This document shows, one piece after another, positions 2,275 through 46,726 of a stretch of 64,000 nt of DNA (its first letter is position 1; the number at the start of each line of letters is the position of its first letter). Source of the DNA: Candidatus Magasanikbacteria bacterium RIFCSPHIGHO2_02_FULL_48_18 (GTDB taxonomy: Bacteria > Patescibacteriota > Patescibacteriia > Magasanikbacterales > UBA922); the NCBI GenBank assembly GCA_001784285.1, contig MFQC01000011.1:3640-67639 (forward strand), read 5' to 3'. The position numbers and the translations under genes are program-made. The notes beneath the pieces are model-generated. The model did not search any database. It had not been told where the DNA came from and saw nothing but the letters and a program-made list of their open reading frames with translations.

Positions 2275-3783
2275 CTACTGGCAGTTGACGCCCGGCATGG
2301 CCGCCGGCTGGCTCGGGTCGATCGAGTGCAGGTTGTCCTGCGACGCGCACGTCGCCAGTTCCACGACGGGGGGCGGTGGGGGTGGGGGTTCCGGGTCACG
2401 CAGAATCAACCACGTAACAAAGACCCCCAACAACGTGCAGAACAGCAGGAACCCGATGGCCGTCGTCCACTGGAAGACCGTGGTCTCCCGCGTGACCGCC
2501 TTCACCCCGTTGAGTGGTGCGTTCACTGTGTTGTTGGCAACCAGCGGCACGCCGCCGGCGCCGACCGCACCCGCACCCCCCGGCAGGGCATTGGCGAAGT
2601 TCGCCAACGCCTGCATGTCGGCCAGTCGCTGGGCCATCGTCGGCTCTGGCGGAGCCACCGGGACGAGACCCTGCAGTTGCTGTACCAGGTCGACCGCGTC
2701 TCCAGCGGTGGGAGCGGCCGGGACCAGACCGTGCAGGGTTGTCACGATCTTTGCCGCCTCGTCGGGGTCTGCCGCCTTGGCCTGCGGCAGGGACTTGAGG
2801 AGCGCGTCGACGAGCGTCGCCGCGCCGTCTCGCTGGTCCTTCGCCATATCCTTTGCGAGCTGCCCCGGGTCCGTGACCTTCGGCAGTACGCCGAGGACGG
2901 CCGTGAGCCGGTCGGCAGCGGCCTTGTCTGCCGCGGCGCCGAGCGTCACGGCGACGCCACCGGTCTCCCGGATCTGCGCCGACGGCGCCTCGGCCTTCGG
3001 AAGCGCCGCAAGGACGGCGTCCAGGCGAGCCTGGGCCGCCTTGTCCGCAGCTCCCCCGAGCTTCGTCGTCATGTCGCCCATCGCGTTGAGCTGGTCCATC
3101 GGGTCGACAGCTTTCGCCATCATCCCCTTGAACATGTCTGCCGCTTCCTTGTAGACCTTTGCCAGGTCGGATTGCGGATTTGCCGCCGCGATCGCCGCGG
3201 GGAGCCCGTTCAGCCTGTCGCCGATCGTTGTCAGCGCTGTGAGGATCTGCGTCGCGGGCACCCCGGCGGTGACGGCGCTCTTCAGCGCCTCCGGGAGTGC
3301 CGTGATCGCCGCCTGGAGGGCGGCGAAGTTTTCTCTTGTCGCCGTTCCCGCCGTGATCAGCGGGAGGAGGACCTTGACAAGGTCCACGATGTCTCGCAGG
3401 TTCATGGTGTCTCCTCCGCCGTCGGGCGGTCTTGTTGTGTCAGTTCTCGTTCTTGTCCGCGGATCGGCCGGCGGCTGGTCAGGGTCCCCGCGCACGAGTT
3501 CAATCGTGCCGGAGGTCGCCTCCCCGGCCGCATCCGTGATCCGGACGCGGACAGGGTTGCGGTGGTCATTCTGGAGGTTCCCCTTGGGAACCACGATGTC
3601 CACCCTTTCGGGCGGACCCGCACTCCAGAACCAACCTTCCCTGCCCAAGGCCGCGGCCTTGGGCACGTCCTTGACCTCACCCCTAATTTCAATTCTCACT
3701 CTCGTCGGCTCTGCCGCGCCGAAGTCACCCTCGACGCGAACCGCCCGATCTCCGATCTTCGTAATGGTTGTGATGGTAGCCAT
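2275..3783 (-). CDS. Repeat-containing protein with beta-rich N-terminal domain, L-x-x-LP-x-A type repeats, C-terminal TM helix and poly-Pro tail
   Basis: Strong GAGGAGG SD 6 nt before ATG at 3783 (MATITTITK...). A second GGAGGAG-ATG occurs in frame at about 3420. Single hydrophobic helix TTAIGFLLFCTLLGVFVTWLIL near the C-terminus. Confidence 0.55.
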   Translation of the reverse strand: MATITTITKIGDRAVRVEGDFGAAEPTRVRIEIRGEVKDVPKAAALGREGWFWSAGPPERVDIVVPKGNLQNDHRNPVRVRITDAAGEATSGTIELVRGDPDQPPADPRTRTRTDTTRPPDGGGDTMNLRDIVDLVKVLLPLITAGTATRENFAALQAAITALPEALKSAVTAGVPATQILTALTTIGDRLNGLPAAIAAANPQSDLAKVYKEAADMFKGMMAKAVDPMDQLNAMGDMTTKLGGAADKAAQARLDAVLAALPKAEAPSAQIRETGGVAVTLGAAADKAAADRLTAVLGVLPKVTDPGQLAKDMAKDQRDGAATLVDALLKSLPQAKAADPDEAAKIVTTLHGLVPAAPTAGDAVDLVQQLQGLVPVAPPEPTMAQRLADMQALANFANALPGGAGAVGAGGVPLVANNTVNAPLNGVKAVTRETTVFQWTTAIGFLLFCTLLGVFVTWLILRDPEPPPPPPPVVELATCASQDNLHSIDPSQPAAMPGVNCQ

Positions 3784-19360: not shown

Positions 19361-19391
19361 AAAGAAAAAACGGCCTTTTCAAGCCGCTTTT
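19361..19391 (-). terminator. Weak intrinsic terminator after ssrA
   Basis: Short GC stem (GGCC..GCCG region) followed by U7 on the minus strand. Confidence 0.35.
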
Positions 19392-19393
19392 TG

Positions 19394-19789
19394 TGGAGAT
19401 GCCGGGAGTTGAACCCGGGTCTAAACGGGATACCACTGCAGTATACATGTGTAGCCACTTTCTTTGTTGCCCATTGACTCAAAAATGGCAAAACGGCAAT
19501 GGGTAAAGTCTGATAATCTTTCACATAGCGTCCTCAGACAAAAACGCTATCCTACGCTCAATGGGTTGGCACCGCGGTTTCCGTATTGAGTATCTGGAGC
19601 GCGATGGTCCAGGCAATTACGCGAGGACAGGAGCAAAAGCGGGAACGCTGAATGCGCGAGCAATCGCGTTCTTCACTCTGCTAACAACGTTTGCACGTAG
19701 TCGATTGTTCGAGTGATTTGCGAGGATCAAACGGCCTCGACATGAATGCGAATGATACCAGAATCCGTCTATCGAATCCTGTCATCCCC
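19394..19789 (-). ncRNA. ssrA: tmRNA (SsrA)
   Basis: Minus strand starts GGGGATGACAGGATTCGATAGACGG (canonical tmRNA 5' end) and ends ...CCGGGTTCAACTCCCGGCATCTCCA (T-arm + acceptor, CCA not encoded). Candidate tag frame ends ...APVLA-TAA. Adjacent to smpB. Confidence 0.8.
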
Positions 19790-42197: not shown

Positions 42198-43391
42198 TTA
42201 TTTAAGAATTTTGGTTACCACGCCAGCGCCAACGGTTCGTCCGCCCTCACGAATGGCAAAACGCATTTTTTCTTCCATGGCGACAGGGACAATCAACTTG
42301 ATAATCAAATTGACGGTGTCTCCCGGCATGACCATTTCCGTGCCTTGCGGCAAAGTCACATCCCCTGTGACATCGGTTGTTCGAATGTAAAACTGAGGCT
42401 TATAGCCGGAAAAGAATGGTTTGTGGCGTCCGCCTTCTTCTTTTGTTAACGAATAGACTTCGGCTTCAAATTCGGTATGAGGAGTAATGGTTCCCGGTTT
42501 CGCCAATACTTGTCCTCGCTGTACTTCCTCTTTTTTGGTGCCGCGAAGCAGGACGCCTGCGTTATCTCCCGCCTGGCCCTGATCTAGACTCTTGTTAAAC
42601 ATTTCAATGCCCGTGACCGTGGTTTTTGCCACTTCGGCTCCCATGCCGACAATTGCAACTTCATCTCCAATTTTTACCACACCGCGTTCAACACGGCCAG
42701 TGACGACGGTGCCGCGCCCTTCGATGGAAAATACATCCTCAATCGGCATAAGGAAGTCCTTGTCCAAAGCACGTTGCGGCTCTGGAATATATTCATCCAA
42801 TGTCTTCAAAAGATCCAAAATAGGCTTTGACGCGGCGTCATCGTTTGGATTTTCCAACGCCTTCAGCGCAGAACCGCGAATAATTGGCGTGGTGTCTCCG
42901 GGAAATTCATATTTTTTCAACAAATCCCGGATTTCTTCTTCCACCAAATCGATGAGCTCTGGGTCAGACACCTGATCCACTTTGTTCAAAAAGACAACAA
43001 TATACGGGACACCAACCTGGCGAGCAAGGAGAATGTGCTCACGGGTTTGAGGCATTGGGCCATCGGCCGCGGAAACAACCAAAATAGCGCCGTCCATCTG
43101 CGCCGCGCCGGTGATCATGTTTTTTACATAATCGGCATGACCCGGACAGTCAACGTGGGCATAGTGCCGGTTTTCGGTTTGGTATTCGACATGAGCGGTT
43201 GCAATGGTAATTCCTCGCGCTCTTTCCTCCGGCGCTGAATCGATCTCTGAAACACTTTTTGTTTGTGCGACAAGACCATGCGCGCCAGCAACTTTTAAGA
43301 TTGAGGCGGTCAACGTTGTCTTCCCATGGTCAACGTGACCAATGGTACCGACGTTTATATGCGGTTTTGTTCGTTGGAATTGCTCTGCCAT
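42198..43391 (-). CDS. tuf: Elongation factor Tu
   Basis: [29 protein letters not shown]... Confidence 0.95.
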
Positions 43392-44201: not shown

Positions 44202-45390
44202 TTTTTGATGTATTTCACGATACAAATGTGACAAGAAACCAAGAGCATCTATTTTCTGATAATTTCATCCTGTACCAAGGATGATTTCCCCGACTACGTC
44301 GGGAAATCGACTGAAGGTCACCCCGCTTTCGCGGGGAGTTTCTCCAGAAAGGAGGTGATCCATCCACAGCTTCCGCTACGGATGCCTTGTTACGACTTTA
44401 CCCTGATTACTGACCTCACCTTGGTCCCCTTGCGGAGCCTTCGGGTGCTGCCAACTTTCGTGGTATGACGGGCGGTGAGTACAAGACCCGAGAACGTATT
44501 CAACGCGCCGTAGCTGATGCGCGTTTACTAGTAAATCCAGCTTCATGAAGACGAGTTGCAGCCTTCAATCCGTACTGAGACCAGTTTTTTGGGATTAGCT
44601 CCGCCTTGCGACTTGGCAACCCTTTGTACTGATCATTGTATCATGTGTGTAGCCCTGGACGTAAGAGCCATGCTGATTTGACGTCGTCCCCACCTTCCTC
44701 CCGGTTGCCCGGGCAGTCCCCCGAGTACATTTAACTCAGGGCAAGGGTTGCGCTCGTTACCCCACTTAAGGGTACACCTCACGGCACGAGCTGACGGCAA
44801 CCATGCAGCACCTATCGAGCACCTTCGAAAGCGTCCCCGATTTCTCGGGGCTTGCAGCTCGTAGTTGAGCCCAGGTAAGGTTCGCCGCGTACCATCGAAT
44901 TAAACCACATGATCCTCTACTTGTGCGGGTCCCCGTCTATTCCTTTGAGTTTTAACCTTGCGATCGTACTCCCCAGGTGGCGCACTTAACGCGTTTGCTT
45001 TTTTAAACGGCACTGAGAGGGTCGATACTCCCAATACCTAGTGCGCATTGTTTAGGGCGTGGACTACTGGGGTATCTAATCCCATTCGCTCCCCACGCTT
45101 TCGTCCATGAGTGTCAGGCACGTTCCAGCAAGCTGCCTTCGCCTTTGGTGTTCCTATCGATATCAGCGCTTATTACGACTACACCGATAGTTCCGCTTGC
45201 CTATCCCGGCCTCAAGTGAATCAGTATTGACAGCAGTCCCGATGTTAAGCATCGGGATTTAACCACCAACTTGATTTACCACCTGCGGACGCTTTACACC
45301 CAATAAATCCGGACAACGTTTGAGGTCTCTGTATTACCGCTGCTGCTGGCACAGAGTTAGCAACCTCTTATTCATGTGGTACCGTCACAA

Positions 45391-45700
45391 CCCCACACCT
45401 TTTATGCTTCATTAATGCTGTTCAAAATTCGCTTTTTCAATTGCGCGTACCCTTTTGCGAATTGCTTCAATCTCTTTTCCCGAATTTCAGCATCTTTCCA
45501 CGAAAGATATGCTTCGTAGTACACCAGTTTCAGTGGCCGGCGATATGCTGTTGATTTCGTTTTGCCATCAGTATGTTCCTGAAATCGTCTGCGCAAATCA
45601 TCGGTAACACCAATGTACAATTGTGCATCTTTCATGCTTTTGAGAATGTATACATAATACATAGTATCGAAGTATACCATAAAGCATAAAAGGTGTGGGG
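45391..45700 (-). mobile_element. ORF-bearing insertion within 16S rRNA bounded by perfect 19-bp inverted repeats (CCCCACACCTTTTATGCTT / AAGCATAAAAGGTGTGGGG)
   Basis: Arms at 45391-45409 and 45682-45700 would extend a 16S helix. The 272 nt between them is essentially all ORF. Confidence 0.6.
45402..45680 (-). CDS. GIY-YIG nuclease, YhbQ/COG2827-like (URI domain), encoded inside the 16S insertion
   Basis: YYVYILKSMKDAQLYIGVTDDLRRRFQEH...KLVYYE...REKRLK matches the GIY-YIG/URI signature. In-frame start alternatives at 45713, 45680, 45662. Confidence 0.6.
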   Translation of the reverse strand: MVYFDTMYYVYILKSMKDAQLYIGVTDDLRRRFQEHTDGKTKSTAYRRPLKLVYYEAYLSWKDAEIREKRLKQFAKGYAQLKKRILNSINEA

Positions 45701-46726
45701 ATTCTTCCCACATAAAAGCAGTTTACACCCCGAAGGGCGTCTTCCTGCACGCGGCGTCGCTCCGTCAGCCTTTCGGCCATTGCGGAATATTCTTGACTGC
45801 AGCCTCCCGTAGGAGTCTGGGCAGTATCTCAGTCCCAGTGAGGCAGGTCACGCTCTCACGCCTGCTACTGATCGGTGCCTTGGTAGGCCATTACCCTACC
45901 AACAAGCTAATCAGACATAGGCCCCTCTCCGAGCCAAAAAAGATTTACATGGGAATGTCATACGACCCCCCATGACCATCGGGTATTAATCCACCTTTCG
46001 GTGGGCTATGCCCGTCTCGGAGGCAGGTTACCAGTGTGTTACTCACCCGTTTGCCGCTAGATTCCGACCGAAATCGGAACCACGCTCGACTTGCATGCCT
46101 TAGACACGCCGCCAACGTTCGTCCTGAGCCAGGATCAAACTCTCAATAAAGAGATGAGCGAAGCGAGTCCTTTATTGAGCCCTGAGCACACTCCGACAAA
46201 GTCGGAGGGCGAAGGGCCATTTGGACTCACATACGTTCATCAGTTGTTGTCTCTCGACAACAGAAGAGTTCACCTTTTTTGATTGCTCAAAAAAGATATG
46301 CTCAAAATTTGGATAATAGACGTCTTTGTCTTTCTTTTTACAGAAAGACCGGTTCTTGTCACATTTGTATTGTGAATGTTGTGGTAAATTGTAACGAACA
46401 TTCTTCCGCTAGAAAGAAAAAAGAGAAACCTTTTTATTCCCAGTGTTCTGTTCAATATCTGCAGATAGAAGATCTACACCATACGGACACAAGACGGGAC
46501 AACGGTTGCTCTTTTTTCTTCCCAGTTCCCCGATGTCCATCGGGGCTTGAGAAAAGTATAGATTGTTATGGTATAGAACCGAGCATGAGTATATAGGGAG
46601 CGCTTTTCTTTGTCAAGGGCGTTTCTTGTGGAGAAGGTGGGGATAAAATACGGGAACAAAAACAACATGAGCCAAAGGGTTTCCTTCAGCTCGTTTTACC
46701 TCCTTTGTATATGATTTTTTTTCTTT

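Follow-up and report, generated by a model that had tools for sequence, protein, structure and literature searches.

A GIY-YIG nuclease cassette bounded by inverted repeats in helix 17 of a Patescibacteria 16S rRNA gene, and a probably mobile family of related cassettes at stable-RNA genes

The 16S ribosomal RNA (rRNA) gene in a 64,000-nucleotide (nt) stretch of contig MFQC01000011.1 (assembly GCA_001784285.1; the whole stretch is called the window here), from Candidatus Magasanikbacteria bacterium RIFCSPHIGHO2_02_FULL_48_18, is interrupted in helix 17 by an open reading frame (ORF) for a small GIY-YIG nuclease lying between inverted repeats. What kind of insertion is this, and how might a structural RNA accommodate it? 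Our analyses show that a cassette without a ribozyme was inserted whole, together with its arms, into the terminal loop of helix 17, precisely and in the same orientation as the rRNA; that across a family of related cassettes the arms are kept complementary through compensatory changes; and that the cassette protein is under strong purifying selection. The cassette is probably mobile. With moderate confidence, we read the insert as a hairpin cassette of a compact family in the Patescibacteria, or candidate phyla radiation (CPR), which is co-transcribed with the rRNA and whose stem insulates helix 17 and offers a probable site of excision by RNase III. The features on which the argument turns are as follows, in coordinates of the window.

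44348–46150, minus strand: host 16S rRNA gene, 1803 nt (Rfam RF00177, 1387 bits, model positions 1–1533)
45391–45700, minus strand: cassette of 310 bp at the helix-17 tip, both junctions fixed by empty sites in four related genes (L085–L088)
45402–45662, minus strand: GIY-YIG ORF, 86 amino acids (aa) plus TAA, MYYVYILKS...NSINEA (Pfam PF01541)
45682–45700, minus strand: 5' arm in the RNA sense, CCCCACACCUUUUAUGCUU, perfect over 19 nt, the stem continuing to 45679 through one U:G pair
45391–45409, minus strand: 3' arm in the RNA sense, AAGCAUAAAAGGUGUGGGG, continuing to 45412 and holding the ORF stop codon
45708–45716, minus strand: native helix-17 basal stem, 5' strand, UUUAUGUGG, predicted partner 45371–45379
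45371–45379, minus strand: native helix-17 basal stem, 3' strand, CCACAUGAA, predicted partner 45708–45716

A preliminary description, made from the nucleotide sequence alone, had reported a 16S gene of about 1800 nt with an extra stretch in helix 17, and both claims hold: Rfam recognises a full-length bacterial small-subunit rRNA of 1803 nt on the minus strand, and 306 nt remain unaligned between model positions 454 and 466. Once the insert is subtracted the gene measures 1493 nt, and the GC content is 40% in the insert against 53% in the remaining 16S. The limits of the insert were obtained through a metagenome scan for the two helix-17 flanks lying no more than 30 nt apart, which returned four related 16S genes without an insert; L086–L088 are 84–88% identical to the window gene over the aligned 16S parts, and L085 is 77% and 94% identical on the two flanks. 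At the insertion point these genes read ...GGGAAGAAT/TTGTGACGG... or ...AATTAGTG..., the uninterrupted site in all four being GAAT/TTGT (slashes mark the insertion point), where the window has ...GGGAAGAAT/CCCCACACC...GGTGTGGGG/TTGTGACGG.... Comparison of the filled and empty sequences therefore sets the insert at exactly 45391–45700, from arm end to arm end, and since the site is intact in L085–L088 without the arms, both 19-bp arms belong to the insert and there is zero target duplication. The earlier suggestion that the arms are extra relative to related 16S genes was in this way checked and stands; the end coordinate first given, 45713, does not, as it wrongly took in 13 nt of true 16S, and the in-frame ATG reached at that position is probably fortuitous.

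In Escherichia coli numbering the insert replaces 16S positions ~453–477, the tip of helix 17. The notion that an ORF was placed into a pre-existing host hairpin is ruled out for the 16S copy by the empty sites, which have neither arm, and it is also contradicted by the overlap of the arms with the ORF stop codon (and, in most relatives, with the start codon too). The insert was found identical on 8 contigs, of which four, from four separate ENA assemblies, were examined, and it is therefore not an assembly artefact. There is zero variation in the insert among the contigs carrying the identical copy, differences being confined to contig ends, where they probably stem from chimeric assembly; hence these contigs hold no information on compensatory change.

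The identification of the ORF as a GIY-YIG protein of the YhbQ type is likewise upheld. PF01541 matches at E=4.3e-15, with 56.2 bits against a cutoff of 22.6, and Y5, Y16, G18, H30 and E62 are the same in all of 51 homologues, R26 in nearly all; the six residues, which we take to be the catalytic positions of the GIY-YIG fold, are present in the window ORF. A search of the PDB with the 51-homologue profile places the UPF0213 proteins 1zg2 (E=5.4e-14) and 1ywl (E=2.2e-9) nearest among solved structures, followed by Slx1 (E=1e-4 to 8e-3). As a bare domain of 86 aa with no auxiliary domain, the protein falls within the UPF0213/YhbQ/Slx1-like group, and no DNA-binding domain was found in it by Pfam and PDB profile searches. 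Matches to phage homing-endonuclease families are weak, and the NCBIfam group I intron endonuclease model gives 19 bits against a cutoff of 56. Bacterial Slx1-like proteins form a minimal single-domain branch distinct from the UvrC/homing-endonuclease branch, were earlier judged mostly vertically inherited repair enzymes, and in one fusion, to a TrmH-like tRNA methyltransferase, hint at a role in RNA metabolism (Dunin-Horkawicz et al., PMC1564403).

The ORF leaves little of the insert over. Its stop codon (45404–45402) lies within the 3' arm, 11 nt short of the insert end, and 38 nt precede the ATG on the 5' side, such that 49 of the 310 nt are non-coding. With an alternative in-frame ATG at 45680, which gives the 92-aa product called in public assemblies (P0001, 100% identical), these figures become 20 nt and 31 nt.

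The arms themselves are as first described, a perfect 19-bp inverted repeat (45391–45409 with 45682–45700) that extends to 22 bp if one U:G pair is included; perfection over 19 bp within a span of 500 bp lies far beyond what chance would produce. The predicted fold consists of the native helix-17 stem, then an internal loop, then the 22-bp stem enclosing the ORF (-110.7 kcal/mol, z=-6.8), which agrees with the hairpin-extending geometry proposed beforehand in that the long stem is predicted to sit on the native one. The native stem sequence is identical in the empty-site relatives. At its outer end the 5' arm of the window carries CCCC(C)AC(A)CC, a motif of the wider family. Host stem and cassette arm also have the motif UGUGGG/CCCACA in common, and the helix-17 stem AUGUGGG/CCACAU allows alternative pairings; thus the helix-17 5' strand UGUGGG may pair with the first cassette bases CCCACA (45694–45712, minus strand) in a small alternative hairpin. 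Throughout the 64-kb window, tblastn, blastn and motif searches found no further copy of the arm, insert or cassette, nor any solo hairpin.

Cassettes of the same build occur widely among relatives. A scan of one genome per species returned more than 590 relatives, from which the best 80 loci, almost all labelled as Patescibacteria metagenome-assembled genomes (MAGs), were taken for counts; host-gene counts below cover these 80 genome loci, and anatomy counts cover 81 loci with a homologous ORF. In 58 of the 81, inverted repeats tightly bracket the ORF, and in those loci none of 50 shuffles reaches the observed score. The elements have a median length of 295 bp (range 279–345 in the 58 loci) with arms of median length 20.5 nt, and encode minimal Slx1/YhbQ-type GIY-YIG nucleases of 83–92 aa. 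In 52 of 58 loci no more than 10 nt separate the ATG from the inner end of the 5' arm, and the ATG is frequently inside the arm; the stop codon falls within the 3' arm in the same proportion (52/58). This overlap with the coding sequence makes the arms a component of the unit rather than a pre-existing host hairpin. A motif is conserved at the outer ends, CCCC(C/T)CAC(A)CC...GG(T)GTG(G/A)GGGG, while the inner parts of the arms vary between loci with complementarity kept. In 45 anchored stems the paired fraction of cells is 93.5%, compared with 60.5% after shuffling, compensatory (double) changes occur at 17 of 20 stem pairs, and pairing falls to ~50% when the partner is shifted by 1–3 columns.

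Two further comparisons concern what selection acts upon. Mismatches in the stems are G:U in 32 cases and A:C in 9 (p=4e-4), or 22 to 7 without orthologous duplicates (p=0.008), an excess which argues that the helix is selected in the sense-strand RNA. Between cassettes at the same site in different species, dN/dS is 0.01–0.1 at dS 0.5–2.4, and the protein is therefore functional and the copies long persistent.

In 41 of the 80 loci the cassette lies in, or at the 5' end of, a stable-RNA gene, and every one is co-oriented with its host. Of these, 28 adjoin a tRNA and 2 a tmRNA, in each case at the 5' end, the first nucleotides of the tRNA or tmRNA falling within or just past the cassette 3' arm; all ORF copies at tRNA and tmRNA loci (32/32) are on the host strand, and 17 of the 32 are at tRNA-Ala. 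Nine loci are in RNase P RNA, mostly in P3, and two in 23S rRNA, one of them in helix 63 and the other (L047) in helix 25, which we take to be a classical site of rRNA intervening sequences (IVSs). The remaining 39 of the 80 loci are intergenic, and a long ORF is interrupted in none. Closest in protein sequence to the window ORF (66–69% identity) are copies in L091, where the ORF precedes a 16S gene by ~250 nt, and in L095 and L096, where it lies in RNase P P3; the nearest arm sequences belong to L053 (RNase P) and L047 (23S helix 25). Because its closest relatives thus sit in a 16S leader, RNase P and 23S, one subfamily occupies different hosts, which is evidence against site-specific homing. 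No second helix-17 copy was found. In viral contigs only distant and partial GIY-YIG matches (41–47% identity) were found, and there is therefore no evidence for a phage vector.

The family loci frequently also contain ORF-less hairpins of 25–110 nt with the same termini. They accompany full copies both within RNase P genes and at tRNA 5' ends, and their arms are closer to the local full copy than to copies elsewhere. The 16S, 23S and RNase P insertions have no target duplication; at tRNA sites, nucleotides 1–11 or 1–7 of the tRNA recur in the left flank, L010 has a 9–10-nt repeat, and further loci have short T(T/A)AAC repeats. ORF-less hairpins at tRNA-Ala 5' ends, of the form GCCCCTCAC...GTGAGGGGC, each follow a direct copy of tRNA nucleotides 1–11, at these positions:

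L057, 2931–3337: tRNA-Ala ORF-less hairpins, flanking the ORF as a ~59-bp repeat
L081, 2935–3325: tRNA-Ala ORF-less hairpins, also flanking the ORF as a ~59-bp repeat
L046, 1263–1445: tRNA-Ala ORF-less hairpins in tandem
L040, 3262–3345: tRNA-Ala ORF-less hairpin

In L057 the 59-bp direct repeat is made up of the tRNA 5' end, the hairpin and tRNA nucleotides 1–16. Several other arrangements were observed. L005 has tandem GIY-YIG cassettes (750–1052 and 1454–1770) ~400 bp apart with identical 20-nt arms, ACCCCGCACCTTTTAAGCAT, and L019, L027 and L069 each hold two ORF copies within 3 kb. Some RNase P RNA genes bear several hairpin insertions at once, as in L035, L048, L049 and L034 (2600–3540); the last has ORF-less hairpins of 95–97 nt at P3 (2627–2721) and directly after the GAAAGTCCGAAC box (2742–2838), together with a full GIY-YIG cassette (2987–3277) and a hairpin of ~155 nt (3380–3536). 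The cassette-bearing RNase P genes L013, L031, L034, L035, L048 and L049 score 31–72 bits against an Rfam cutoff of 100. L042, L043 and L014 have in common the right cassette flank GGGGG/AAAGGTCGAAT, which resembles a tmRNA 5' end (GGGG..GG.UCGA); neither ARAGORN nor Rfam called a tmRNA there.

Does the insert belong to a class already described? The preliminary description had held that it leaves no room for a ribozyme core, and a permissive Infernal scan of 45330–45780 with all of Rfam (E<=10) bears this out, returning the 16S itself and two noise matches only. A group I intron is ruled out, the RF00028 covariance model being silent at E<=10, as is a group II intron, with no covariance match at that threshold and only 49 nt non-coding. 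The same pipeline does find two group I introns in the 23S gene of L047 (4677–4932 and 5520–5811); as that gene also holds the helix-25 cassette, both kinds of insertion coexist in one gene. An archaeal bulge-helix-bulge intron is ruled out as well, since the predicted stem is continuous and its sole irregularity is the native helix-17 internal loop. The insert does share properties with an rRNA IVS, in that a variable rRNA hairpin tip is replaced, the termini pair into a long stem and presence is sporadic, four related 16S genes being without it. At family level there are also the properties of terminal inverted repeat (TIR) transposons and miniature inverted-repeat transposable elements (MITEs), namely terminal inverted repeats, dispersed copies and non-autonomous derivatives. 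A target-site duplication of fixed length, as expected of TIR transposons, is missing (0 nt at 16S, 0–11 nt elsewhere), and to our knowledge GIY-YIG is not a transposase fold. Membership of the REPIN-RAYT class is ruled out by a protein that is GIY-YIG rather than HUH/Y1, and the arrangement is analogous only.

We propose the following course of events. The ORF, presumably without a promoter of its own, would be transcribed as part of the pre-16S rRNA, and once the 3' arm had been transcribed the arms would pair as a ~22-bp stem stacked on helix 17; this stem would close off a 270-nt loop, and the 16S could thus fold normally. A long perfect duplex of about two helical turns would then be cut by a double-stranded RNA nuclease, most likely RNase III, which would free the ORF-bearing RNA and, if rRNA IVSs are a guide, leave the 16S in two pieces joined by helix 17 without ligation. 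Translation might occur on the nascent transcript before stem closure, or from the excised fragment, which in most relatives would begin near the ATG. At the level of DNA, and more speculatively, the nuclease may help the cassette to spread or to persist. Among its relatives, the closest that have been characterised cleave branched and hairpin DNA, and for this reason the nuclease probably acts on hairpin or cruciform DNA, be it formed by the cassette arms or by target hairpins; it would not read a long target sequence. RNase III is retained in the CPR (PMC12641178), and excision without ligation agrees with the reported absence of CPR rRNA insertions from transcripts (Brown et al., as cited in PMC11270868).

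A number of points weigh against this reading. We infer excision, the enzyme responsible and the fragmentation, as opposed to retention, of the 16S. No RNase III gene occurs in the 64-kb window; as the window covers just a fraction of the genome, this absence is uninformative. Target duplications are inconsistent (0 at 16S, 7–11 nt at tRNA) and no uniform rule is established; we know of no GIY-YIG enzyme that acts as a transposase, and with a protein without a DNA-binding domain the reading does not account for the choice of target site. Nor does it account for the conserved outer motif, which RNase III does not require. The stem statistics rest on loci selected for having a repeat, a transcription-linked C>T bias on the non-template strand could partly lie behind the G:U excess, and purifying selection with long retention at one site would fit a domesticated host gene equally well.

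Alternatively, the 310 nt may stay in the mature 16S as an extension of helix 17 protruding from the 30S subunit, with the ORF translated from the pre-rRNA or never. The helix-17 tip is variable and peripheral, the helix is already truncated in this lineage, the stem is predicted to stack on the native helix and no sequence feature forces cleavage. A retained 300-nt loop is, however, less plausible at tRNA and tmRNA 5' ends and in RNase P P3; one cassette lies in 23S helix 25, where insertions are excised in other bacteria, and a median arm of ~20 bp suits the substrate of a double-stranded RNA nuclease. Since CPR rRNA insertions have also been reported as removed from transcripts (Brown et al., cited in PMC11270868), we regard retention as unlikely, if far from negligible. 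A domesticated host gene, that is, a cellular nuclease for repair or processing that has come to reside in strongly transcribed stable-RNA units, with the stem serving only processing or expression control, would account for the dN/dS of 0.01–0.1 and for persistence at the same site across species at dS up to ~2, and would accord with the view of Slx1-like proteins as vertically inherited repair enzymes and with the TrmH-like fusion (PMC1564403). Against it stand the filled/empty polymorphism at the 16S site among relatives, the several copies per locus in L005, L019, L027 and L069, the presence of one subfamily in different host genes, the ORF-less hairpin derivatives and the lower GC of the insert (40% against 53% in the host 16S), and it seems to us a rather doubtful explanation.

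We give little credence to an intron-like element, in which the GIY-YIG protein or host enzymes would cleave and religate the transcript to leave the 16S intact. The outer motif CCCC(C)AC(A)CC/GG(U)GUGGGG does suggest a sequence-specific recognition that RNase III would not need, and an endonuclease ORF within a terminal stem, without a ribozyme, is the arrangement of archaeal rRNA introns; yet the helix is predicted to be continuous and perfect with no bulge-helix-bulge motif, and no evidence of a ligase was found. The known activity of GIY-YIG enzymes, moreover, is that of DNases, and we know of no bacterial pathway of protein-dependent cleavage and religation of this kind. It is similarly improbable that we are dealing with a classical homing endonuclease gene, whose product would recognise the uninterrupted helix-17 DNA and whose cassette would be copied in by double-strand-break repair. 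Precise insertion without duplication is what homing yields, GIY-YIG is a known homing-endonuclease fold, and there are the weak matches to phage homing-endonuclease families; but the protein is a bare 86-aa domain of the Slx1/UPF0213 branch rather than the I-TevI branch and lacks a DNA-binding domain, no other helix-17 copy was found while the nearest relatives are in a 16S leader, RNase P and 23S, and insertion sites are poorly conserved in sequence (PMC11270868). A degenerate or unusual group I or II intron, or an assembly artefact, is scarcely credible: although introns are common in CPR 16S genes (PMC11270868), no intron covariance match appears at E<=10, only 49 (or 31) of the 310 nt are non-coding, and the identical insert is on 8 contigs, the four examined being from separate assemblies.

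The reading of the insert as a mobile hairpin cassette can be carried further. The family may constitute a new class of autonomous mobile element which, at ~300 bp, would be about the smallest known, its Slx1-like nuclease acting on the hairpin or cruciform of its own repeats and on hairpin targets; this we put forward tentatively, as a possibility short of an even chance. The same tentative proposal would make the ORF-less derivatives MITE-like, have the family colonise stable-RNA genes, and let the stem double as a device for RNA insulation and excision. By analogy, such an element would be a GIY-YIG counterpart of REPIN-RAYT or of IS200-like hairpin elements. If the nuclease does mobilise the hairpin, it would represent a new, extremely small type of transposon with a structure-specific nuclease open to biochemistry; if it does not, the cassette would be a selfish or domesticated gene expressed within the stable-RNA precursors of extremely streamlined genomes. 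In either case CPR rRNA insertions with GIY-YIG genes, so far merely 'not an intron', gain a concrete structure, and one element family ties together scattered oddities in Patescibacteria tRNA, tmRNA, RNase P RNA and 23S genes. Annotation is affected too, as cassette-bearing RNase P RNA genes miss the Rfam gathering score and 16S genes lengthen by ~300 nt.

The surroundings of the gene bear on its lineage and transcription, and two neighbouring features are relevant.

42198–43391, minus strand: tuf, downstream of the 16S gene together with a 194-aa ORF
46588–46616, minus strand: sigma-70-like promoter match TTGACA-17-TATACT, 11/12 (consensus match only)

The EF-Tu encoded next to the 16S matches that of a Ca. 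Magasanikbacteria MAG at 100% identity; the host is therefore a CPR/Patescibacteria bacterium, and the assignment to the CPR made in the preliminary description was correct. Zero matches to large-subunit rRNA occur across the 64-kb window, there being no 23S downstream of the 16S, and this genome appears to have unlinked rRNA genes. The promoter match, ~440 nt upstream of the 16S, is the sole one on the 16S strand and the presumed source of transcripts that include the ORF; no sigma-70-like match lies inside the insert on that strand. In the 515F primer region (45330–45350, minus strand) the gene has GTGCCAGCAGCAGCGGTAA in place of ...CAGCCGCGG..., and the empty-site relatives L085–L088 are alike, so standard 16S primers would mismatch this lineage. 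In the tmRNA gene of the window (19391–19789, minus strand; 122.7 bits), ~44 nt that the Rfam consensus lacks are inserted past the resume-codon/tag region, and no cassette-type hairpin was found at the 5' end of the gene.

How the cassette relates to known systems can now be stated. The CPR rRNA insertion sequences with GIY-YIG genes (Brown et al. 2015; PMC11270868) are the same phenomenon as the insert in the window. In a CPR survey, GIY-YIG ORFs numbered 15 in 16S insertions and another 15 in 23S insertions; these insertions were of neither intron class and at scattered, poorly conserved sites, and the authors suggested that the homing paradigm does not cover them (Tsurumaki et al. 2024, PMC11270868). 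Unlike the present analysis, that survey describes no inverted repeats (the term 'inverted repeat' appears 0 times in its text), exact boundaries, Slx1/YhbQ subtype, non-rRNA sites or ORF-less hairpins. In a literature search of incomplete coverage, and thus as absence of evidence only, we found no description of an inverted-repeat-flanked GIY-YIG/YhbQ element, of such insertions in tRNA, tmRNA or RNase P genes, or of the ORF-less hairpins; a paper on tRNA group I introns in Patescibacteria mentions neither GIY-YIG nor hairpins. GIY-YIG ORFs in non-intron CPR rRNA insertions were therefore already known, and it is the cassette anatomy and the family context that appear to be new.

With the UPF0213/YhbQ/Slx1-like proteins the window protein has in common a bare catalytic domain (PMC1564403) and its closest structural matches (1zg2, E=5e-14; Slx1, 1e-4), although inverted-repeat cassettes in stable-RNA genes have not been described for that branch. 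I-TevI and the Seg proteins resemble it in catalytic fold and in their association with insertions in conserved genes; they possess a DNA-binding domain and reside in group I introns or at intergenic places in phages, whereas the window protein has neither attribute. The archaeal rRNA and tRNA bulge-helix-bulge introns with LAGLIDADG genes similarly place an endonuclease ORF in a terminal stem without a ribozyme core; the cassette differs in having no bulge-helix-bulge, a bacterial host, another nuclease fold and no indication of ligation. In organisation it recalls, by analogy, the REPIN-RAYT and MITE families, in which a nuclease gene lies within hairpin-forming inverted repeats and ORF-less hairpins are dispersed; transcripts of one MITE family, the Correia elements of Neisseria, are RNase III substrates. 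RAYTs are HUH/Y1 enzymes, and the Correia elements have a TA duplication and encode nothing; the cassette, by contrast, has a GIY-YIG enzyme and arms that overlap the start and stop codons of the ORF.

In its working the cassette would find its closest analogue in an rRNA IVS carrying an ORF. Such IVSs occur in 23S helix 25 and helix 45 of Salmonella, Yersinia, Campylobacter, Leptospira and Coxiella, and more rarely in 16S; RNase III excises them without religation, and in some a small ORF (23S_rRNA_IVP) is present. Like them, the cassette occupies a variable hairpin tip, has complementary termini in a long stem, lacks a ribozyme, is sporadic among relatives and can carry an ORF, the L047 cassette lying in 23S helix 25 itself. 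The excision that is known for IVSs is for the cassette one that we infer. The cargo also sets the two apart, being a GIY-YIG nuclease rather than the four-helix IVP protein, as do a conserved motif at the termini and the further presence of cassettes at tRNA and tmRNA leaders, in RNase P RNA and in intergenic DNA.

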